Source of the DNA: an uncultured Gammaproteobacteria bacterium
GTDB taxonomy: Bacteria > Patescibacteriota > Patescibacteriia > JACQRZ01
NCBI GenBank assembly: GCA_964621085.1
Contig: CAZUKY010000001.1
Coordinates: forward strand, 22,951 to 86,950
DNA length: 64,000 bases
Reading direction: 5' to 3'
Numbering within the stretch: the first letter of the stretch is position 1; the number at the start of each line of letters is the position of its first letter. The notes under the pieces are model-generated. The model searched no databases. It worked only from the letters and a program-made list of their open reading frames with translations, and had not been told where the DNA came from. The position numbers and the translations under genes were made by a program. Shown piece by piece: positions 7,203 to 32,365 of this stretch.

Positions 7203-8210
7203 CTAGAACGCCGAGTAGCTCCAATCCCGAATTACCTCAGAGGGTACATGGCGGCGATGGGTTACAAAAATCCGCTGACGCCGTTCCGTATTACCGTTCT
7301 GCATAATCTCACACAGGAGCTGGTCCGGATAGTGGTACCGCTTCGCGGTACTTAGGGAGTCGCTGGCGGATTGCGCCGCCTCTACGTCGCCAAGCGGGAC
7401 GCGACCCGTCCATTGCGGCGGCATGCGATGCATATCGCTCCTTCGCATGATCTTGTACTCATGAAACGCATTATCCGGAAAAATTCGCAGTGACGGCCCG
7501 GGCCGTTCCGGAAAGAGCGATTTGGTATGGGAGTCCTCGTCAAAGACCGCCACCCAGTCGGCATGCACGATCGTTGTCCCATCAGCGCTGACTGCGACAG
7601 CCCGACGATAGTCGTCCAGGGCCGACTGGCGGATGTGCTCGATCCGTTCCGCTAATGCCCAGCACAGGTAGCTCCGAGCCTCCCGCCATTGGCGCACGTT
7701 GCGCTCCCAGTGTGTCAAGAGCATATCGGCTGCAACCCGGTGGTCGGGGTACGCCAGTTGCGTGTCATCATCATCCCCTTCGCCGAAACACTCATCGTAA
7801 AAAGCGAGGAACGCGGATGACCGCACGCGAATGACATGTCCGTGTCGCTCGGTGAAAAAAACGTGCGGCCGCTGCTTCAGAGAAGTCACAAGCTGAAAGA
7901 GATCCGATCGGATTGGAATCCGATCATACTCATCCGAGAGCGACAAGAGCGGTCGGAACACCTCTTCCAGATTACAGGCGCGGAGGCACTCTGCCCAGTC
8001 AACCCCTTGTCTGTCCGGTTGTTTCGCCGTCTTTTGCTTCTCGAGGAATTCCTCGATATCAGGCCTGCCGAATGACGGCCGTTCACTAAAGCGCGTCCGA
8101 ACAAAGGCACCCGGGCGTGCGTCCAAGCACTTCAACTCACTCAGCTCCATAAACAACTCCTCTCGGATGTGTACGAGGGTGTCTAGTCCTCGCACAAGAG
8201 CTTTCCACAC
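7203..8210 (-). CDS. Hypothetical protein
   Basis: 335-aa ORF in a modestly GC-elevated block; an acidic DDDD run; no recognisable domain. Confidence 0.4.
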   Translation of the reverse strand: MWKALVRGLDTLVHIREELFMELSELKCLDARPGAFVRTRFSERPSFGRPDIEEFLEKQKTAKQPDRQGVDWAECLRACNLEEVFRPLLSLSDEYDRIPIRSDLFQLVTSLKQRPHVFFTERHGHVIRVRSSAFLAFYDECFGEGDDDDTQLAYPDHRVAADMLLTHWERNVRQWREARSYLCWALAERIEHIRQSALDDYRRAVAVSADGTTIVHADWVAVFDEDSHTKSLFPERPGPSLRIFPDNAFHEYKIMRRSDMHRMPPQWTGRVPLGDVEAAQSASDSLSTAKRYHYPDQLLCEIMQNGNTERRQRIFVTHRRHVPSEVIRDWSYSAF

Positions 8211-8273
8211 CTATCCTAGCACCGATCGGACGCATGACAAGGTCGCGCTCTCTGGAGACTCGGGCGTTCCCTG

Positions 8274-8849
8274 TTGACACAAGACAGACGCCATGGCAAC
8301 CTGGTCAGCGAAACGGATGAAGTGAGGGAGGTGCCAATCGTGCCGCGACGGAAGAGAAACGATAATCAACGCGGATTGCAGACCTGCAAGTTCTGCCTCG
8401 AGTGCGAGCAATGGCGGCCCATTCGGACGGACTACCACATGGATCGGGCGAAGAGTGATGGCATGCGGCCTTACTGCAAGATGTGCTCGAGTTCCAGGTC
8501 CCCGAAGGTAGGCGCGCCGAAACGAGCGCGGGCAGAGCATGAAAAAGGCCTTCAAACCTGCAAGTACTGCCTCGAGTGCGGTCAGTGGCGTCCGATCGAT
8601 ATGATCTACACCGATCGGAAGTCGGCCGACGGCCTCAGCGCCTACTGCACGCCATGCAAAAAGAAGCAGCCCCGCTACGTGTCTGCACCGCGAAAGAGCG
8701 AGCGGATCGTCGAGGCAAAATGGTGCCATGACTGCAAACTGTGGCATCCCACAAGCGAGTTCGGCCCGGCATCCAAGTACTCGCGCAAGCGTTACGCGGA
8801 CGCATGCAAGCGTTCGCAGAAAAAGCAACCAGCAAAGCGCACTGCGTAA
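8274..8849 (+). CDS. Cys-rich protein with three tandem CxxC...CxxC zinc-ribbon-like repeats
   Basis: Repeats GLQTCKFCLEC..QWRPI...YCKMC, then GLQTCKYCLECGQWRPI...YCTPC, then a degenerate third repeat CHDCKLW...ADACKRS. Probable true start is the GTG near 8348, preceded by a GGAGG SD. A terminator follows the gene. Confidence 0.5.
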   Translation: MTQDRRHGNLVSETDEVREVPIVPRRKRNDNQRGLQTCKFCLECEQWRPIRTDYHMDRAKSDGMRPYCKMCSSSRSPKVGAPKRARAEHEKGLQTCKYCLECGQWRPIDMIYTDRKSADGLSAYCTPCKKKQPRYVSAPRKSERIVEAKWCHDCKLWHPTSEFGPASKYSRKRYADACKRSQKKQPAKRTA

Positions 8850-8939: not shown

Positions 8940-9722
8940 TTAAAACCGCGGTTCGAAGCTGTGGATCTCAAAAACCCGCTCAATCTCGCGAAGCTGTTCC
9001 GGTGAATTGATGCCCAATCCTTCCCGCGGGTCATCGATCCGATATGAACCGACAGCTTTGTTGTCATAGGCCGCAAGGGCAACCAAGTCGGTCAGGTAAT
9101 ACTCGCCGTTGGCAGGATTGGGGGTAAGGTATGGAATCACTGACTCAAGCCAGGTGCGGGAAAAGCAGTAGTAGCCGGGATTGACCTCTGCAATCGCCCG
9201 CTGCTCGTGGGTAGCATGCCGCGCCTCGACAATCCCCTCGATCTGTCCATCCCCATCTCGGAGAACGCGTCCGAAGTCGCGAAAGGTCGAACGCCAGCCC
9301 AAAAAATCGGTCACCGTAACGGTCGCGAGCGTCATTGGATACCCCGTTGCCTGGTGCACCCGAAAAAGCGACGCGATGGTGCGTCCCGTAACGAGCGGAT
9401 GATCGCCGTTAAGAACTAAAATATCGTCACATGACGGTAGTTGCTGCAGAGCTTCGCGAACCGCGTGGCCGGTTCCGAGCTGCTCTTTTTGGTATATGTA
9501 GTCGAAATAGGGCCCCAGCTCATCGACAATCTGCTCTCCCATATGTCCGACCATAATGTGCGGATCCACGCCAAGGTCCGCCTGTACCACCGCATCGAGA
9601 ATCCACGTAATCAGCGGCCGTCCGCCGAACGAGATAAGAGGCTTTGGAAGAAAAAGACTGCGCATGCGCGTCCCCTTTCCCGCCGCAAGGATGACGACTG
9701 CAACTTTCCGCTCCGTATGCAT
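8940..9722 (-). CDS. Sugar-phosphate nucleotidyltransferase (GlmU N-terminal-domain-like; no acetyltransferase domain)
   Basis: VVILAAGKGTRM signature near the N-terminus and a GT-A nucleotidyltransferase fold pattern; 260 aa. Confidence 0.7.
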   Translation of the reverse strand: MHTERKVAVVILAAGKGTRMRSLFLPKPLISFGGRPLITWILDAVVQADLGVDPHIMVGHMGEQIVDELGPYFDYIYQKEQLGTGHAVREALQQLPSCDDILVLNGDHPLVTGRTIASLFRVHQATGYPMTLATVTVTDFLGWRSTFRDFGRVLRDGDGQIEGIVEARHATHEQRAIAEVNPGYYCFSRTWLESVIPYLTPNPANGEYYLTDLVALAAYDNKAVGSYRIDDPREGLGINSPEQLREIERVFEIHSFEPRF

Positions 9723-9844
9723 AGGCCACAGGTTAAAGAAGTTCTGCCATTATCGACGGATGAGGAACGGTTTGATTACAGTAGTGAAGCATTAAAAAAA
9801 ATAGGCCATCCCTATGATCAAGGACGGCCATCGCATCACCGCTC

Positions 9845-10714
9845 TCAACGCGCGAATAAGGCGATAGAGATAAGAACACTACCTATGATACACATGCCGT
9901 TTCCGGCAATCCGGAGAACTCCAAGCTGACTCTTGAAAATCACCTTATCAGCTGCAAGCGCACCAAGCGACGAAAACGTATCCTTGACGGCGAGAACGTA
10001 TCCGGGATTCGCCGCGAGAGCCATTGCCGCATATTGGCAGAGATACGATATTCCGCCGATGGTACCAATTGCGGTGTTTATACCGATGTGTTCTGCGGAT
10101 GTTCGCCGCGAAAAGCATTCCCGGACAAAGAAGGCAATCACTGCGGACAGGCCGACGTATCCCAGCGCGAATACACTGACATTACCAGCTGCAGCAACGC
10201 CTTCTTTTTGAAGAACCGAGGTGATACTCCACAAAGAAATCACAACTCCGATGAAAAGCGCGTCCCGTACGCGGAACGGTATTCCGGCGTGTTCGCGTTC
10301 ACTGCCAAGAAGGACAAGGCCAAGACAAACAGTAGTAATTCCGATGAAGGCCGATATGGGCAGCGGCCCCCCTTTTGCCATAACGTACAGCAAAAAAGTC
10401 GCAACTCCAGTCAGGCGAAGAAATGGCATAATGCGCGATAACGGGTGTGCTGCAATCAGAAGTCCGTAGACATACTGAGCGATCAGCTCCGCAACGACCA
10501 TTGCCGAAAGAATCACTGCAAGGCTCCCGATATTCGAGACTTCCCACGGATGACCCTGACTCAGCCAAAAGAGCATCAGCGCTGGCAGCGCCCAAAGATA
10601 GTTTGCGCAGAGCGTTGCCCATGAATCACCGTTCCGGTGCAGCGATATGCGGATTGCTGCAGACTTTGCTGCGTGCAGAGATCCGCACGCGGAAGCGAAA
10701 AGTTCCCACGGCAT
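9845..10714 (-). CDS. Integral membrane protein, DMT/EamA-like transporter candidate
   Basis: 289 aa with about 8-10 hydrophobic segments in two halves. Confidence 0.4.
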   Translation of the reverse strand: MPWELFASACGSLHAAKSAAIRISLHRNGDSWATLCANYLWALPALMLFWLSQGHPWEVSNIGSLAVILSAMVVAELIAQYVYGLLIAAHPLSRIMPFLRLTGVATFLLYVMAKGGPLPISAFIGITTVCLGLVLLGSEREHAGIPFRVRDALFIGVVISLWSITSVLQKEGVAAAGNVSVFALGYVGLSAVIAFFVRECFSRRTSAEHIGINTAIGTIGGISYLCQYAAMALAANPGYVLAVKDTFSSLGALAADKVIFKSQLGVLRIAGNGMCIIGSVLISIALFAR

Positions 10715-25624: not shown

Positions 25625-25651
25625 GAATGTAATCCATTATTACAATCCCTC

Positions 25652-26047
25652 CTAACTCTTTATATTTTGGAGAATTTCCTTCAGTTGATTTGGATTTCTT
25701 TTAATATCCACTTGAATGAATTTATCCACACAGCCATAGTGAATCAATTCATTCATCTCTGCCGTAAGGAGGATATCATCTATCCAGCGAAAGTCCTTTG
25801 TGAAGTCGATCACTTCAGTCTTGAGAGATCGCCAATACGTGGGCCTTATTCTCTGGAGAAGGTTTTCAGTCTCAGGCGGCAGTATGCGTAGCAGGTATTC
25901 AGTAGCTCTATTCTCTCCACCTCGAGAGTGAGTCGTCAGCCAATAGCAGTCGTAATGAGCTGTGACTTCTTCCAAAAATTCGATTGCATGTGCAGTAGGT
26001 CGGCCATGAGTAACCAGTACGCCGTCAATGTCGAGATAGATGTTCAT
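25652..26047 (-). CDS. HAD-superfamily small phosphatase-like protein (5'(3')-deoxyribonucleotidase / PNK-phosphatase-like)
   Basis: Motif I YLDIDGVL, motif II WLTTHS, motif IV RWIDDIL. Confidence 0.5.
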   Translation of the reverse strand: MNIYLDIDGVLVTHGRPTAHAIEFLEEVTAHYDCYWLTTHSRGGENRATEYLLRILPPETENLLQRIRPTYWRSLKTEVIDFTKDFRWIDDILLTAEMNELIHYGCVDKFIQVDIKRNPNQLKEILQNIKS

Positions 26048-26101
26048 GTCTAAGATGCAAATCAAATCTTCTTCCTCAGAATTTCAGTAACACGAAATGC
26101 T

Positions 26102-26371
26102 TCATATCCGCTTGATAATACGCTGCCTTTTTAATTCATCAGTAAGACGCATTGCCCTCGCATACCCAATCTTGAATTTCCTTTGAATCCAATTAGAATC
26201 GACTTTTTTAACTTTTCCACCTACTACATCCTCCTTAATCCTGCGGATCAAGTATGGAAATTCATAACTGTCGCGAAGTGCTTCTATCTTCAAAGTTAGT
26301 TCCTTCATGTTACCCTCCGCACTCTTAAGAAGAGCAATAAGCTCCCTCGTAGTTTTATCGGAGTTATTCAT
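26102..26371 (-). CDS. Small protein with an FtsK-gamma-like winged-helix DNA-binding domain
   Basis: C-terminal IQRKFKIGYARAMRLTDELKRQRII closely parallels the FtsK gamma consensus LQRRLRIGYNRAARLIEQME. Start taken at MNNSD, 10 nt after the res C-terminal ORF stop. Confidence 0.5.
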   Translation of the reverse strand: MNNSDKTTRELIALLKSAEGNMKELTLKIEALRDSYEFPYLIRRIKEDVVGGKVKKVDSNWIQRKFKIGYARAMRLTDELKRQRIIKRI

Positions 26372-26381
26372 ATAAATACAT

Positions 26382-27023
26382 TTAACCAGAATAGACACTA
26401 GTAGCAATTTCGGTTTCGAAAACTCTTACAACTTCTGCAAAAGATTTTACCTTGTACTTCTCCCAATCTTCCTGTCGGATATAGAGCGCGTTATATGTCA
26501 TCCTGCCTTGCCTATTGTTCACGTCATCGCACCATTGCTTGAGCCGTTCAAATTTTAATCGATCATCCTCCTCCTCGCGCCCTTTTGTCTCGACAATATA
26601 AACCGTCTTGTCATCCGTTTTCACAAAAAAGTCGGGATAATATGTTGCGATAAATCCTTCAGAATTCTTATACTCAATTCTCAACGCGCTTGCCTCTTTG
26701 TTTTGGAAATTCTTTGAGAAGGAAACGACATCTTGCTCGTCACAACTCTCGAGGAAGCTTGCGAATTCAAGCTCGAAATCGCTATCTCCGACAATCTTAT
26801 TGAATACTGATTTTTTTGGGATAACGCATGCTTTATCATTGACTACAAATGGTCGAGCGTCACTGACTTTGATGAAATTCCTGATTTCGGTATCGCCTTT
26901 ATCCTGCACCGTAAGATCGTTAATAGCTTTCTTAAACGACTCCCTGATAAGCCGCACGTATTCGGGCTCTGAAAGATTCCGTAAAATGTTCAGGTCTGAA
27001 AGATCCACTTGCCCCTCAAACAT
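26382..27023 (-). CDS. res: Type III Res C-terminal PD-(D/E)xK endonuclease domain ORF, in frame with res and separated from it by a TGA
   Basis: YYPDFF...VYIVETKG matches the PD...ExK nuclease motif. The reading frame continues without interruption from the stop of the upstream helicase ORF (19 sense codons, then ATG). Confidence 0.6.
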   Translation of the reverse strand: MFEGQVDLSDLNILRNLSEPEYVRLIRESFKKAINDLTVQDKGDTEIRNFIKVSDARPFVVNDKACVIPKKSVFNKIVGDSDFELEFASFLESCDEQDVVSFSKNFQNKEASALRIEYKNSEGFIATYYPDFFVKTDDKTVYIVETKGREEEDDRLKFERLKQWCDDVNNRQGRMTYNALYIRQEDWEKYKVKSFAEVVRVFETEIATSVYSG

Positions 27024-27080
27024 ATAACTCTGTATAAACTCTTTTACCTTGCCAAAAAGAATGTCATAGCATCCGAATAA

Positions 27081-29102
27081 TCAAAGCTCGCGCATGATCG
27101 CCTGAACAAAAAAGCCAATTGCACTCTGATGATTTGGTTCTATATCGCCAGTTAAAATTGTCGTATGGTGAGTTTTCTCATCCACGACATCTTTGAAAAC
27201 AATTTCTCGCTTCTCTGTTGCGGTAAATGTTTTTATATTGACTCTCTTATTCCTAAATGATGCAACATCGAGCTCTGAGAGATTTTTATATTCTCTCTGA
27301 ATGCGGGGCGACATGACAGGCACCTCGATATCCAGCTTTTCAATATCTTTCTTAGGGTTATCTCTATCCACCTCAACCACGAGCGGGGCGATCGGCTTTG
27401 AGCCATGACCCATCGCCTTCTTCTCAAGAATAACGCCTTCGCCCTTGATCGATTCCACAAAATCCATGAATGCCTGCGTTCCCAAAACGCTGACATATTC
27501 TTGAACGTCTTCTCGCCCGAAGAACATTCTTCGCAAGCCCCGCCCAAGGGTCTGTTCGGGTAAAATCTTCGAGTCAGCGGCAAAGGGACGAAGACCAACA
27601 ATAGTGGTCACGTTTTTCACATCCCAGCCCTCTTTGAGCATAAGAACGGAGACAATCACCTTGTAGGGACTTTCCCAACTATCGATATCATTTGCTTGTT
27701 TTCTCAGTAGTGCGAGCTCTTCTTTATTCTTCCCCGTCACGCTTTCAGATATCTCACCGCTTCTATTGGTATGAATCGTCAAAACACTGCCTTTCAAATC
27801 AGCAAAAGTATTTTCAATATATTGGGCAACCTCATCACAGTTCTTCGTATCATCGGTCATGATGAAAAGAATCGACTTCTTGCCCATTGTCCTCAATGTC
27901 TCGAACGTTTTTCTCCACTCCTCTATACCAAGGTTAATGTAGTCCCTGTAGCGTTCACTAAAAAGCGCGCTCTGGTTTTCTTTGAGCTTTCCCTGACTCG
28001 CTGCATCGGGTACGACCGGATTTTTTACTATTCTCTGGTGGATCGCTTCGACAAGAGGATAATCCGAAATCGTCTGCACAAAAATTGAGCCGTCATTCTT
28101 CTTTGGCGTAGCAGTAACGTCCAACTGTAAGGCCAATCCAGAGCCTTTCTGCTTGAGCCGGTTGTCGATGTCTTGAATAGACTTAAACCATGCCATCTTT
28201 TCATCATGCAGATGATGGGCCTCATCATTGATTACTATCAATTCGTCTATATCTCGCACTATCGAGCCTAAATCTAGCGTTGAATCATTTGTCTTTGTGA
28301 CAGGCTTGTTGCCGAGAAAATATGCGGTCGTATCCTTGTCTTCATAACTTGCTTCTTTGACATCTCCCTCAAAAACTCGATGAATATTGGTCAAAAAAAT
28401 ATTTCCTGTTTCTGAGATATTGTGTAAGTCATCCTGCAGGTGCAGTGTTATTTGAAAATCGTCCTGCCAGTTTTGTCCTTGGTAACCGTTATCCGGTAAG
28501 ACGGGATCGTTGAAAAATATTTTCAATCCTTCAAAGTCATTTTTTATTCTGTCAAAAACAATCACGTTGGGCGCAATCAGGAGAAAGTTTTTTGCAAGTC
28601 CTGAATCCTCTTCGAATTTTTTATGGAAGTATGCCCATGCGACAAGAAGGCTCATGACCTTTGTTTTGCCTGCACCGGTTGCCATCTTAATGACAAAGCG
28701 TAGCCATTCTTCAGTGAACATCTGAGGACTCAACACGCCCGTTGAGTTGTAACGAATGAGGTCGTACTTATCCTTTACCTCTGCAACGTCATAGAGCCAG
28801 ACAACTGTTTCCAAAGCTTCTCTTTGGGCAAAGTAGTACCGAAAATTAAATGACGTGCCATCTTGGTTGTATTGGATATGATCTTCCTTGAACCACCAAT
28901 TTAGCAGTGCCTTTGATGTACCGCTTGCTCCCTCATAGTTTTTATCACGCCATTCTTTTACTCGTTTGCGCAGGTCGGCGACTAATGGAGGGAGTAACTT
29001 ATCGTAGCCCTTCTCACGCAGGTCCTCATCAGCAGGAAACCACCTGATACTTGGATCAAGAATTTCATAGGGATCTTTTGGGAAGTCTTTATGTAGAGCC
29101 AT
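27081..29102 (-). CDS. res: Type III restriction enzyme Res subunit, SF2 helicase/ATPase portion
   Basis: Walker A ATGAGKT, DEAHH box, and motif VI QTLGRGLR. Located downstream of a Type III mod gene. Ends in TGA at 27081-27083. Confidence 0.8.
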   Translation of the reverse strand: MALHKDFPKDPYEILDPSIRWFPADEDLREKGYDKLLPPLVADLRKRVKEWRDKNYEGASGTSKALLNWWFKEDHIQYNQDGTSFNFRYYFAQREALETVVWLYDVAEVKDKYDLIRYNSTGVLSPQMFTEEWLRFVIKMATGAGKTKVMSLLVAWAYFHKKFEEDSGLAKNFLLIAPNVIVFDRIKNDFEGLKIFFNDPVLPDNGYQGQNWQDDFQITLHLQDDLHNISETGNIFLTNIHRVFEGDVKEASYEDKDTTAYFLGNKPVTKTNDSTLDLGSIVRDIDELIVINDEAHHLHDEKMAWFKSIQDIDNRLKQKGSGLALQLDVTATPKKNDGSIFVQTISDYPLVEAIHQRIVKNPVVPDAASQGKLKENQSALFSERYRDYINLGIEEWRKTFETLRTMGKKSILFIMTDDTKNCDEVAQYIENTFADLKGSVLTIHTNRSGEISESVTGKNKEELALLRKQANDIDSWESPYKVIVSVLMLKEGWDVKNVTTIVGLRPFAADSKILPEQTLGRGLRRMFFGREDVQEYVSVLGTQAFMDFVESIKGEGVILEKKAMGHGSKPIAPLVVEVDRDNPKKDIEKLDIEVPVMSPRIQREYKNLSELDVASFRNKRVNIKTFTATEKREIVFKDVVDEKTHHTTILTGDIEPNHQSAIGFFVQAIMREL

Positions 29103-29835
29103 ATATCTTTTTATGAATGGAGTTTATAAAGCAAGATCCAATTTCTAGTATATTTCTAGTATATTTAACCATATCTTGCGCGGTTCTCTGTCGTCTTTTT
29201 TTCTGACCACCTAAACTTGCGTCCATCTCATGAATAATCTCGTTCCGAACATCGAACGCTTTTTTAGTAACCTCGGACTCTTTCAGGATCTCCGCCGGAG
29301 TAATAGCAAAATTTGTAGCAACTTTTAATAACTGATCGCGGGATTGCAGACTATCGTCTACTAAACTTTTTTTTAGGGCATCTATAAGATAATCTCTGGG
29401 ACTTGAGCTCGCTAAAATGGAGGCAACCCACGTTGTGTCAATTAGTAATTTTTCCTTTTCGTCAGAGCTTCCTTTTTTCATTCTTCGATCTATGAATTTT
29501 TGAAACTCTTGTTGTGCGCCGGCCTCTTTATCGATAACTGTCGAGAGAGAATCCTTAACAAGTTGTTTTACAACCGAGTCTAACCCGGAGCATGAAAAAA
29601 CCAACATAGCACGCAAAAGGTCCTGCTCCGCATGTGTTGTGCTCCCCTTACTACCCCTTCTATTTGCTTGGAATAATTTATAGAACTCATTTACTGAATT
29701 AATGGCATGCTCAAAAACTATTTTTGCATTTTTTATTTCACGGAAATCTCCAGAAATAAGTTCTGTTACCTTAATTTCTTTAAATTCTTTTTTTGACATA
29801 TCGGGATCACTAACTGTCTTGTTCAATATCAACAT
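29089..29835 (-). CDS. Hypothetical alpha-helical protein with an RNxxxH motif (candidate HEPN-like domain)
   Basis: VRNEIIHE near the C-terminal third matches the HEPN Rx4-6H (RNxxxH) signature. Overlaps the res start by 14 nt and the upstream small gene. Assignment is by motif only. Confidence 0.4.
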   Translation of the reverse strand: MLILNKTVSDPDMSKKEFKEIKVTELISGDFREIKNAKIVFEHAINSVNEFYKLFQANRRGSKGSTTHAEQDLLRAMLVFSCSGLDSVVKQLVKDSLSTVIDKEAGAQQEFQKFIDRRMKKGSSDEKEKLLIDTTWVASILASSSPRDYLIDALKKSLVDDSLQSRDQLLKVATNFAITPAEILKESEVTKKAFDVRNEIIHEMDASLGGQKKRRQRTAQDMVKYTRNILEIGSCFINSIHKKIYGST

Positions 29836-30127
29836 CAGTAAACCCTAGTGGTAGTGGTGAGTATCCGGCATGACCCGGATAGCCAGGATAACCCGGATAG
29901 CCAGGATAACCCGGATAGCCAGGATAACCCTTGTAGGGATTATAATGCTTCTTATACAGGCGATTGTTCGTGAAAATATGTCCTAAATAATTACCGTTAG
30001 TATCGACAACTTCAAAGGAATCCCAGGGTAGCCAACCAATCCAACTCCCATTTGTATTATAAACATATCTTCCTACTCGGAAGGCAATCCACTCGCCTGA
30101 AGAATTATAAAGATATTGAAAATTCAT
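29810..30127 (-). CDS. Small protein with an N-terminal aromatic/Trp-rich repeat (YxYNxxGxWIxx) and a C-terminal (GYP)n tail
   Basis: 105 aa. The GYPGYPGYPGYPGYPG tail is encoded by the 18-bp tandem repeat. The start ATG overlaps the mod stop (TAATG), implying translational coupling. Confidence 0.45.
   Translation of the reverse strand: MNFQYLYNSSGEWIAFRVGRYVYNTNGSWIGWLPWDSFEVVDTNGNYLGHIFTNNRLYKKHYNPYKGYPGYPGYPGYPGYPGYPGHAGYSPLPLGFTDVDIEQDS
29873..29930. repeat. Tandem repeat, 18-bp unit ACCCGGATAGCCAGGATA x3.2, in frame within the small GYP gene
   Basis: Three perfect copies plus a partial one, read directly in the sequence. Confidence 0.85.
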
Positions 30128-32211
30128 TATACAAGCACGTCTATTACCTTTGTTGTATCATTGCCGAAGATATCTACCACCTTCACGGCAACTTTATAGG
30201 CTCCTTTTGATACCTCTTTTGCTGCAGATACAAGCTCAAGGTTTCTATTTTTCTTTGTTCGGAAGCTTTGCCACTCGTTATCAAAGATATAATCACCCGT
30301 CCAAATCTCTTTCTCTTCATCACCGTCTATAATTTTGATGATCTCTTTTCTATCAGCAAAGTTAAAATCTACCGCCCAATAGTCAATCCAATCGCTCCAT
30401 TTCTTTGTAAGTATCTCCGGCTCGCCTATGGTGCCGTCCTTGTTCTTTGATATTTTTTTAACCTGTCCATTCTCAATAATAATTTTTGACCCACCAGACT
30501 TTAATGATTCTTGTATCTCTCCTGAGTCGTCTTGGCTGTAAAAAACCGAAAAATCTGTTAACTCGATGGCTAATTCTTTACTACCTGCCCGACCCTTGAT
30601 AATTGGCTTCGCCTCGATGAATGCCACGTCATAAAATTTGACTTGGCCTTTTTCTACGGCTTTTCTGTCAAACACTTCTCTTGGGATTACGCGGAAAGCA
30701 ATGTCGATTCCTCGCTTTTGGTAGCTTCCGAAATCTATACCCATTTCATAATCAAAACCGAGCACATCAACTTTTGTAATGCCTTTTTCTTTGCATTCGG
30801 TCGCAACTTCCTCGATAAATTTGGAGGATACTGGGAGATTGATTGGACCAACTACAACCAAGCGATCTCGTTTTTTACCGACAACATTTACAAACGAGTC
30901 GACACGCTCTGCTTTATACGCTGAAAGAATAAGATCTACATATTCTTTTTCTTTTCTCTCTGCCTGTTTTGCTCGTTCTTCTGCTCGCAGATCACTATTT
31001 AGCGTAAGAAAGTTTTCTCGCTCATAGCGACCAACATTCAATACCTCAAAAGCACGGAAATTTTGCCCAGACTTCTTTAGCTCGCGCTGAACACCAACCA
31101 TTCGTTTTCGCGTTGTATGTATAGAAAACTTTCCCAGATCGGACCCGATCCATTTTCTACCAAGCTTTTCGGCAACAGCAAGAGTTGTGCCAGAACCACA
31201 AAAAAAATCTGCAACTAAATCACCTTCATTTGAAGATGCCTTAATAACACGTTCAAGTAACGCCTCGGGCTTTTGAGTCGGATAATCAACTCTTTCCCTT
31301 GAATCGGATTCAGTGCCTAGTCCATACACATCATCCCAAACATCGCGACAAATTGAATTGTGGTACCACATTTTCTTTTCCTCATCCCAAATTTCAGGAT
31401 ATTTCTCATTGAAATTGTATTTCTTTGCCTGGTAGGACTTGTAGTATTGAGTATTGAATGAAAAATCTGAGGTTCTCGAATAAAAAAATATGGCGTCATG
31501 CTTTCTGGCAAAGAATCCTTTGCTTACTCCACCCGTTTTATAGCTCCAAATTATTTCATTTTTAAAATTATCTTTACCAAAAATTTCATCTAGCGCTAAT
31601 CTAAGGTAACCACTTACGCGATAATCGCAGTGAACATAGATACTGCCATCCTCTGCCAACAATCCATGCATTAGCTTTAGTCGTTCATAGATCATAGCGA
31701 TAAAGCTATCTGCCCCTTTTCCCCATGTATCTCTATAGGCTATTTCTTCAATCACTGACGGCTTCTTAGTAAAACTCTCCGCGTCATCGCCGTCGCCAAT
31801 TTTTATATCCATCGAAAAATCCGCTCCGACGTCAAAAGGAGGGTCGATATAAATCAATTTTAAACCGCCCTGCGCTTCGATTTCCTTTCGCAAAGGACCA
31901 TTTTTCAGTGATGAGAGTATTAGCTTATTGTCGCCCCAGATGAGCTTATTCGTCCACCCAGTTATTTGTCGGCCCGAGGTATCAAAAAGTGTATTTTGTC
32001 TGCCGATTTTTCCATCGCCTCGTGGCTCGTCTATTTGCTCAATCACCTGGAATGGCAAGACAACGTTTGTAACTTCATTTGTTTTTCCATTCCAGACAAG
32101 CTCTACCTCTCGATCGTCACCGAACAATAAAAAGCGATATTTATCTGGAAGTGGCTTACCCACCTCAAGATATCTAATAACATCTCGTTTTTCATTATCA
32201 GTTAGATACAT
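30127..32211 (-). CDS. mod: Type III R-M Mod subunit (beta-class N6-adenine DNA methyltransferase)
   Basis: Motif [13 protein letters not shown] precedes motif [10 protein letters not shown] (a beta-class permutation). A central variable region is present. 694 aa, with a res gene downstream. Confidence 0.85.
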
Positions 32212-32246
32212 AATTATCCTTATTTGAGCTTTGGTAATTTTCCTTT

Positions 32247-32275
32247 ATTTTAGAAGACTTTTTAACAGTAAGCAA
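32247..32275 (-). promoter_or_regulatory. Candidate promoter of the mod operon (TTGCTT, 17-nt spacer, TAAAAT on the minus strand)
   Basis: -35/-10-like elements with a 17-nt spacer, about 35 nt upstream of the mod ATG, which has an AAGGA SD. Confidence 0.35.
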
Positions 32276-32365
32276 GTGCTTGCAATGACTCAAACATACA
32301 ATACTGAAGGCGGCTAAAAGCCTTGCGGAATACCGCGCCGTGCGGTATACTTATGGTGTCTGTGA

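Follow-up and report, generated by a model that had tools for sequence, protein, structure and literature searches.

HEPN-domain ribonucleases (RNases) act as toxins of toxin-antitoxin (TA), abortive infection (Abi) and restriction-modification (R-M)-linked systems, and at least 16 HEPN clades have been tied to R-M systems (Anantharaman et al. 2013, PMC3710099). By analogy with PrrC-EcoprrI, the R-M-linked HEPN proteins have been viewed as a second, suicidal line of defence that is released when restriction fails (PMC3710099). The entry for the Ribo L-PSP-HEPN clade in the same survey reads 'fused to endoRNase L-PSP; operon with ParB' and names no association with R-M, and the survey is older than the definition of the 4-fold beta-flower fold (PF21784). 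A PF21784 domain is present in Cernunnos, a single-gene integron cassette of Vibrio cholerae that protects Vibrio and E. coli from phage (Darracq et al. 2024, bioRxiv 10.1101/2024.07.02.601686) and that was recovered anew in a later screen (10.64898/2026.03.17.712381). Here we describe a Type III-like R-M operon in which a beta-flower gene (bfl) and a gene encoding a RiboL-PSP-type HEPN protein (hepn) lie between mod and res, in a stretch of 64,000 nucleotides (nt) of contig CAZUKY010000001.1 from an uncultured bacterium (the window; unless a locus is named, all positions refer to it). We know of no solved structure and no mechanism for the beta-flower fold. We propose, with a probability of roughly 55%, that bfl-hepn is a mobile cassette that acts as a toxin-regulator or abortive-infection-like module and has lodged in the R-M operon.

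The four genes are transcribed on the minus strand in the order mod, bfl, hepn and res. The first three, with the two sequence features discussed below, are as follows.

30127..32211, minus strand: mod, 694 amino acids (aa), Type III-like beta-class N6/N4 DNA methyltransferase (PF01555, 7e-45; PADLOC MTase_III, 2.7e-112)
29810..30127, minus strand: bfl, 105 aa, 4-fold beta-flower protein with a C-terminal (GYP)n tail (PF21784)
29862..29933, minus strand: 9-nt periodic DNA repeat encoding the GYP repeats (repeat search, family D1)
29089..29835, minus strand: hepn, 248 aa (236 aa with ATG 29799), RiboL-PSP-HEPN family, predicted endoribonuclease (PF18735)
29230..29247, minus strand: codons of the Rx4H motif R197-N-E-I-I-H202 (R197, 29245-29247; H202, 29230-29232), within VRNEIIHE

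The ATG of bfl and the TAA of mod share the sequence TAATG, and hepn overlaps res, whose ATG is at 29102, by 14 nt. The bfl/hepn junction depends on where hepn begins: ATG 29835 gives the 248-aa protein and a 26-nt overlap with bfl, and the alternative ATG 29799, which corresponds to the public-database call (P0001), gives a 236-aa protein that starts 10 nt past the bfl stop. The hepn start is uncertain, and the coupling of the two genes is tight with either codon. An earlier note, made from this DNA alone, had placed mod at 30127-32211 within a segment of 29089-32211, with the TAATG and 14-nt junctions, all of which were borne out on re-checking, and had described every junction as overlapping and the genes as coupled. 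The operon is indeed tight, and its gene order recurs in relatives (see below), but bfl and hepn overlap only if ATG 29835 is used.

The 248-aa protein had been called HEPN-like in the earlier note from one short motif and its helical character, and both profile and structure comparisons now support that call. It scores 30.4 bits against PF18735 (HEPN_RiboL-PSP; cutoff 28.4) over profile positions 7-189 of 191, and many of its homologues carry a precomputed PF18735 match. The Rx4-6H motif that is conserved in the HEPN superfamily is present, with R197 and H202 invariant across 42 homologues, as are D72, R75, D86, K90, S162, Q164, D205 and R217. The AlphaFold2 model (predicted local distance difference test score, pLDDT, 91) is all helical, with the up-down helical bundle of the superfamily, and its fold matches HEPN toxins and Abi proteins. 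Profile, motif and model together identify the product as a HEPN-domain protein, and by analogy with its family it is predicted to be a metal-independent endoribonuclease. Searches of Pfam, PADLOC and NCBIfam found no ATPase domain in it. The family is small yet widely distributed, with 947 cluster representatives at E ≤1e-3 among the 1.84 billion searched, nearly all of them standalone proteins of 220–260 aa.

The 105-aa open reading frame (ORF), which bears GYPGYPGYPGYPGYPGHAGY, scores 35.6 bits against PF21784 (gathering cutoff 25). Described in the earlier note as a GYP-repeat small protein, it belongs to a family that has a name, PF21784. In its AlphaFold2 model (pLDDT 88.5) the chain forms a beta-hairpin repeat of eight strands, and a fold search found no analogue of it in the PDB, in line with what has been reported for the beta-flower fold (PMC10584680). 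No DNA-binding domain was found in a Pfam search, and there is no nucleotidyltransferase (NTase) match. Within the repeat DNA the synonymous codons alternate, the number of repeats differs among homologues, and the length of the tail may change by slippage. A solo beta-flower gene whose product is 56% identical to that of bfl, including the GYP tail, is present as a single-gene cassette in the chromosomal integron of Vibrio metschnikovii (L087:6001-6321 and L088:5597-5917), among ParE/Phd-type and other cassettes. Beta-flower matches are also seen at the C-terminal ends of ORFs of 230–639 aa in seven loci (L105, L115, L116, L128, L137, L162 and L171), which could be either true fusions or the product of ORF over-extension in high-GC DNA.

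When one genome per species was scanned, 80 loci were recovered that encode relatives of the window HEPN; they belong to Patescibacteria, Alpha- and Gammaproteobacteria, Acidobacteriota, Latescibacterota, Gemmatimonadota, Chloroflexota, Planctomycetota, Cyanobacteria, Bacteroidota and others. Of the 80, 66 have a co-oriented beta-flower gene directly 5′ of hepn, and in nearly all loci where both genes are called the distance from the bfl stop to the hepn start is about 17 nt or less, with a 4-nt overlap in about 19 of 44. Metagenomic beta-flower loci with room downstream encode a HEPN protein directly 3′ of the beta-flower gene in 47 of 70 cases and further off in a 48th, and the two proteins co-diverge (r about 0.5, 100 non-redundant pairs). 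The surroundings of the pair are highly varied: its 125 immediate neighbours represent 114 Pfam families, no family occurs more than four times, and many of the flanking genes are housekeeping genes, e.g. those for aminoacyl-tRNA synthetases, RecA, gyrase and ribonucleotide reductase. From these comparisons bfl-hepn is recognizable as one autonomous, mobile and tightly coupled two-gene cassette of about 1.05 kb that is present in many phyla, and as a conserved, coupled and mobile cassette with the small gene first it shares the generic organization of TA and Abi pairs.

Searches of other collections returned little. Nothing meaningful was found for either insert in NCBIfam, PHROGs gave one marginal match, and a plasmid collection gave a single weak match to HEPN. 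In IMG/VR the pair is present on one viral contig and a full-length solo beta-flower gene on two, the other 14 matches being weak and partial or to the repeat only.

Variations on the cassette and its setting were also noted. Aminoacyl-tRNA synthetases (SerRS, CysRS, HisRS and ValRS; L020, L026, L049, L032, L047, L069 and L084) are the commonest single kind of neighbour, and this adjacency could reflect chance, shared ancestry of the loci, or a hint that tRNA is the RNase target. In seven loci of the Candidate Phyla Radiation (CPR; L047, L052, L061, L065, L069, L075 and L076) hepn is preceded not by bfl but by another conserved protein of about 110 aa (e.g. L069:2628-2960), which has no match in Pfam, PHROG or PADLOC; in four of the seven this alternative pair is directly 3′ of a Type II R-M operon. 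At L039 (9142-9861) the beta-flower gene is replaced by one for a Hypoth_Ymh protein, another HEPN family, 7 nt upstream of hepn. A HATPase_c_3/Ymh gene is near the cassette in L084, where a serine recombinase adjoins. Locus L055 has tandem bfl-hepn copies (8004-8563 and 9634-10621), and the HEPN gene of the upstream copy is degraded.

Close relatives (L002, L081-83 and L159) have the same mod-bfl-hepn-res order as the window. An orthologous mod-res operon on the Aminobacter plasmid pANY103c (Res 63% and Mod 61% identical) is without the insert, its two genes overlapping directly, and the insert-bearing L002 is nearer to this plasmid operon than to that of the window; the presence of the cassette is thus patchy within one R-M family. 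The earlier note had allowed that homologous mod-res operons might lack the two ORFs, as would be expected of unrelated insertions, and they are indeed absent from pANY103c, yet they are kept in L002, L081-83 and L159. A different outcome is seen in L089, a Paceibacterota contig, where the first 28 codons of res (MALHKNFPRDPYKILD...) remain joined to the hepn stop and unrelated sequence follows.

L089:4367-4453 (also L001:1223-1300): remnant of the 5′ end of res, 28 codons, attached to the hepn stop

The pair in L089 adjoins a Vsr-like ORF (with an FVHGCFWHGC motif seen in the sequence itself) and another ORF, which falls into one cluster with a C5 methylase confirmed by Pfam. The scar shows that this copy of the cassette was derived from a mod-res operon and outlived its loss.

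Other R-M genes are associated with the cassette elsewhere. In a Nomurabacteria metagenome-assembled genome (L008) an unrelated, classical Type III operon has the order mod, bfl, hepn, a 233-aa gene and res; this third insert (L008:10695-11396) has a hydrophobic N-terminus and matches two PHROG families without assigned function (4e-10). L041 has the order Dcm-Vsr-bfl-hepn, and in L038 a protein in which an N6-methylase is fused to a specificity domain is followed by bfl-hepn. Operons of a Type II methylase and endonuclease in the CPR are followed by the other 110-aa partner and hepn, the nuclease component being MvaI/BcnI in L061, MjaI in L069, HinP1I with Vsr in L047, and a PD-(D/E)xK protein in L065. 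By a raw count R-M genes share an operon with the cassette in at least 8 of the 80 genome loci, besides the window, L081-83 and L159. Capture of the cassette by R-M operons is recurrent, involving two unrelated Type III families, Type II, Type IIG and Dcm/Vsr genes. Most copies of the pair have no adjoining R-M gene, and because of this, and because the two genes are retained even with res interrupted or gone, the best-supported interpretation of its presence in R-M operons is one without functional dependence on them. The two genes, which had been presented as a feature of the Type III operon, are better described as a self-contained cassette that is mostly found without R-M genes nearby and is missing from the orthologous pANY103c operon.

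The restriction gene of the window, given in the earlier note simply as res, is not intact, and its two parts are as follows (SF2, superfamily 2).

27081..29102, minus strand: N-terminal 673 codons of res, SF2 helicase/ATPase part (PF04851, 4e-17; PADLOC REase_III, 2.3e-19)
26382..27023, minus strand: C-terminal part of res, PD-(D/E)xK endonuclease domain, 213 aa if re-initiated at ATG 27023 (RE_endonuc and TnsA-like matches)

An in-frame TGA at 27081-27083 separates the helicase and nuclease parts, which share one reading frame, and the same split is present in an independent Logan assembly (L187). The two ORFs match both ends of the NCBIfam BPTD_3080-family model, below its cutoff, with the C-terminal part corresponding to model positions 842-947. 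Res is intact at about 890 aa in the relatives L002, L081-83 and L159; in the alignment with L081 and L002 the TGA falls at an Arg codon, and a change of CGA to TGA would be the simplest explanation. Recoding of TGA (code 4 or 25) was considered and ruled out: TGA terminates about 15 of the 47 host ORFs of at least 150 aa in the window, roughly a third, and so is a stop codon in this organism, and the relatives have Arg at the position rather than Trp or Gly. The restriction subunit is thus probably disabled or impaired by the nonsense codon, while mod, bfl and hepn are full length and retain every family-invariant residue. The mod product has both the DPPF and FxGxG motifs and is 61–69% identical to the Mod proteins of L081, L159, L002 and L186; an intact mod beside a truncated Res would leave an orphan-like methylase.

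The whole operon is contained in a 6.6 kb island of about 40% GC, compared with about 54% GC in the genome and the flanking DNA. The unit of mod, two inserts and res that was recognized earlier is too small, as the island also holds two further genes.

25650..32300, no strand: low-GC island, between a host gene for a 599-aa protein and gyrB (composition profile and ORF list)
26102..26407, minus strand: winged-helix gene, 101 aa, FtsK-gamma-like (PF09397, 5.5e-9), overlapping the end of res by 26 nt
25652..26065, minus strand: HAD-like gene, 137 aa, the last of the island (weak sub-threshold Pfam matches only)

The FtsK-gamma-like gene is probably the tail of the operon. Neither it nor the HAD-like gene is present in the related operons examined (L081 and L002). 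The low GC content suggests that the island is of foreign origin, and we regard the operon as a horizontally acquired, Type III-like R-M operon. There are no tRNA genes within the window, a repeat search found no convincing flanking direct repeats and there is no integrase at the island borders. A scan for promoters and terminators was uninformative, with promoter-like sites being fewer than in shuffled sequences.

In the model that we favour, the HEPN protein would be the effector, a predicted metal-independent RNase with an intact Rx4H site, a role assigned on the basis of its fold, the invariant motif and what is known of the family. The beta-flower protein would be its obligate partner, holding it silent in uninfected cells, and a phage cue would cause the beta-flower protein to release or activate it; the small-gene-first order, the translational coupling and the co-divergence of the two proteins are the reasons for casting the beta-flower protein as an obligate regulator or sensor. 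Active HEPN would then cut RNA, leading to growth arrest or an aborted infection. Placement in an R-M operon would give co-expression and co-transfer of a DNA layer (Mod/Res) and an RNA layer (Bfl/HEPN), with the cassette able to work without the R-M proteins; in the window the DNA-cutting layer is probably impaired through the truncation of Res, with mod, bfl and hepn remaining intact. A more ambitious version of this model, in which the beta-flower protein senses phage and acts as the switch that directly gates the HEPN RNase, and bfl-hepn is an unrecognised, phylum-spanning abortive-infection system that joins several R-M types to provide two-tier DNA and RNA immunity, is possible and on balance doubtful.

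Several findings weigh against a toxin-regulator module. A substantial minority of the metagenomic beta-flower loci (22 of 70) have no HEPN gene, and Vibrio integrons carry solo copies as cassettes. Conservation is higher in the beta-flower protein than in HEPN, with a mean pairwise identity of 61% against 45% and the higher value in 97% of comparisons, which is unlike typical fast-evolving antitoxins. The direct neighbours of the pair are mostly not defence genes; in a PADLOC run mod and res match Type III models and neither insert matches any PADLOC v2 model; and a tblastn search of both proteins against 50,697 phage records gave no match. Bfl-HEPN fusions, which might have been taken as evidence of interaction, do not survive inspection: the long family members P0287 and P0251 result from gene calls that extend too far and translate the GYP repeat in the wrong frame. 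Finally, because solo copies exist and Cernunnos acts as a single gene, an effector or sensor activity may belong to the beta-flower protein itself, which would then not be an inhibitor of HEPN.

Taken further, this last point becomes an alternative that assigns the main effector or sensor role to the beta-flower protein, as in Cernunnos, with HEPN as an additional or substitute effector; the two genes would then be a Cernunnos-type system to which an RNase has been added, and not a TA pair. It would accommodate the defence provided by Cernunnos alone, the solo homologue with its GYP tail in V. metschnikovii and the higher conservation of bfl, and the pairing of CPR HEPN proteins with a different small upstream protein suggests a modular exchange of partners. 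However, Cernunnos is tied to the window subfamily only at the level of the Pfam family, and the strict order of small gene and then HEPN, with overlaps of 4 nt, is the arrangement classically seen in antitoxin-toxin pairs such as MntA-HepT; we regard this alternative as rather unlikely. The remaining alternatives also stand below the toxin-regulator module in likelihood. One is a guard of the PrrC kind, in which HEPN is physically restrained by the Mod/Res complex and becomes active only once the R-M enzyme has been disabled by an anti-restriction factor of a phage, so that the insert is R-M-dependent. This is the model put forward for R-M-linked HEPN genes in PMC3710099, and it fits the position of hepn between mod and res with overlapping junctions and the similar layout in two unrelated Type III families. 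It is nevertheless improbable, given that most copies of the pair have no adjoining R-M gene, that the pair persists with a broken res in the window and with a 28-codon res scar in L089, and that there is no ABC-ATPase or other R-M-binding module such as that of PrrC.

Slightly less probable again is a purely selfish addiction module, i.e. a hitch-hiking TA cassette that stabilises its island and has no role in phage defence. The recurrent location of the cassette in the same operons as many types of R-M genes, the anti-phage phenotype demonstrated for a member of the beta-flower family, and a small partner that has no DNA-binding domain for autoregulation all argue against this, in spite of the insertions beside unrelated housekeeping genes in many genomes, the patchy distribution within one R-M family, the serine recombinase adjoining the cassette in L084 and the degenerate tandem copy in L055. 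Least probable, and very much so, is that the island is a decaying, pseudogenised R-M remnant in which the inserts are no longer functional: the nonsense codon in res is present in two assemblies and the low GC suggests a foreign origin, but mod, bfl and hepn are full length with all family-invariant residues kept, and res is one point change away from an intact gene.

The pairing gives the beta-flower fold a concrete and conserved partner, a predicted HEPN RNase, and with it a testable lead for the mechanism of Cernunnos; if it is true that the beta-flower protein gates HEPN, the single-gene action of Cernunnos would also be explained. The RiboL-PSP-type HEPN joins the list of RNases that are repeatedly recruited into R-M operons, and the occurrence of one R-M family both with and without the cassette, together with survival of the cassette through R-M gene decay, constitutes a clean natural experiment. 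At about 1.05 kb, and present in many bacterial phyla including the CPR, bfl-hepn is a compact candidate defence or toxin module that is not represented in PADLOC v2.

Comparison with the closest described systems places the locus among them without equating it with any one. In its general plan the window operon follows canonical Type III systems (EcoP15I-like; the Res here is BPTD_3080-like), with co-oriented genes for a Mod subunit that has an N6/N4 methyltransferase domain and for a Res that combines an SF2 helicase with a PD-(D/E)xK nuclease domain at its C-terminus; it departs from them in having two unrelated genes between mod and res, where res would directly follow mod, and in having a stop codon between the two domains of what would be a single Res polypeptide. 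PrrC-EcoprrI shares with it an HEPN RNase gene among R-M subunit genes, read as a second, RNA-targeting and possibly suicidal layer. PrrC, however, has an N-terminal ABC-ATPase and belongs to a Type Ic system, whereas in the Type III-like operon of the window HEPN stands alone and its beta-flower partner is encoded by a gene of its own; the fusion of an N-terminal ABC-ATPase to a C-terminal HEPN that characterizes PrrC and RloC is absent from hepn, and the genomic context of bfl-hepn, with most copies lacking R-M neighbours, speaks against an R-M dependence of their kind.

Among two-gene systems, HepT-MntA has as its partner a minimal nucleotidyltransferase, as is characteristic of type VII TA systems, in contrast to a beta-flower protein that has no NTase match. 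HepT has an Rx4HxY motif, whereas the window sequence is RNEIIHEM, with no Tyr past the catalytic His, so that control of this HEPN by AMPylation is unlikely; HepT is also shorter, at about 130 aa compared with about 240 aa and extra helices in the window protein. The AbiD/AbiF (Abi_2) proteins and the C-terminal HEPN of AbiA differ in other ways, since hepn has no Abi_2 Pfam match, no reverse transcriptase or other fused domain, and is one of two genes. Cernunnos shares its PF21784 domain with bfl, a kinship that is known at the level of the Pfam family and through the Vibrio integron homologue only, and it is an autonomous single gene, whereas bfl is coupled to HEPN in the window and in about two-thirds of loci, and here lies inside an R-M operon. 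Searches of full-text literature under the names and accessions of both Pfam families, and for HEPN in combination with Type III R-M, turned up neither a beta-flower-HEPN pair nor a mod-HEPN-res operon. The beta-flower partner, the placement in Type III operons and the module as a whole, moving between R-M operons of several types, thus appear to be undescribed. An RNase gene within an R-M operon, which the earlier note had taken for an unusual hybrid architecture, is in contrast an established theme, as the 16 or more R-M-linked HEPN clades attest (PMC3710099), and the overall architecture of the locus is that of an R-M-linked HEPN, a kind that is already known.

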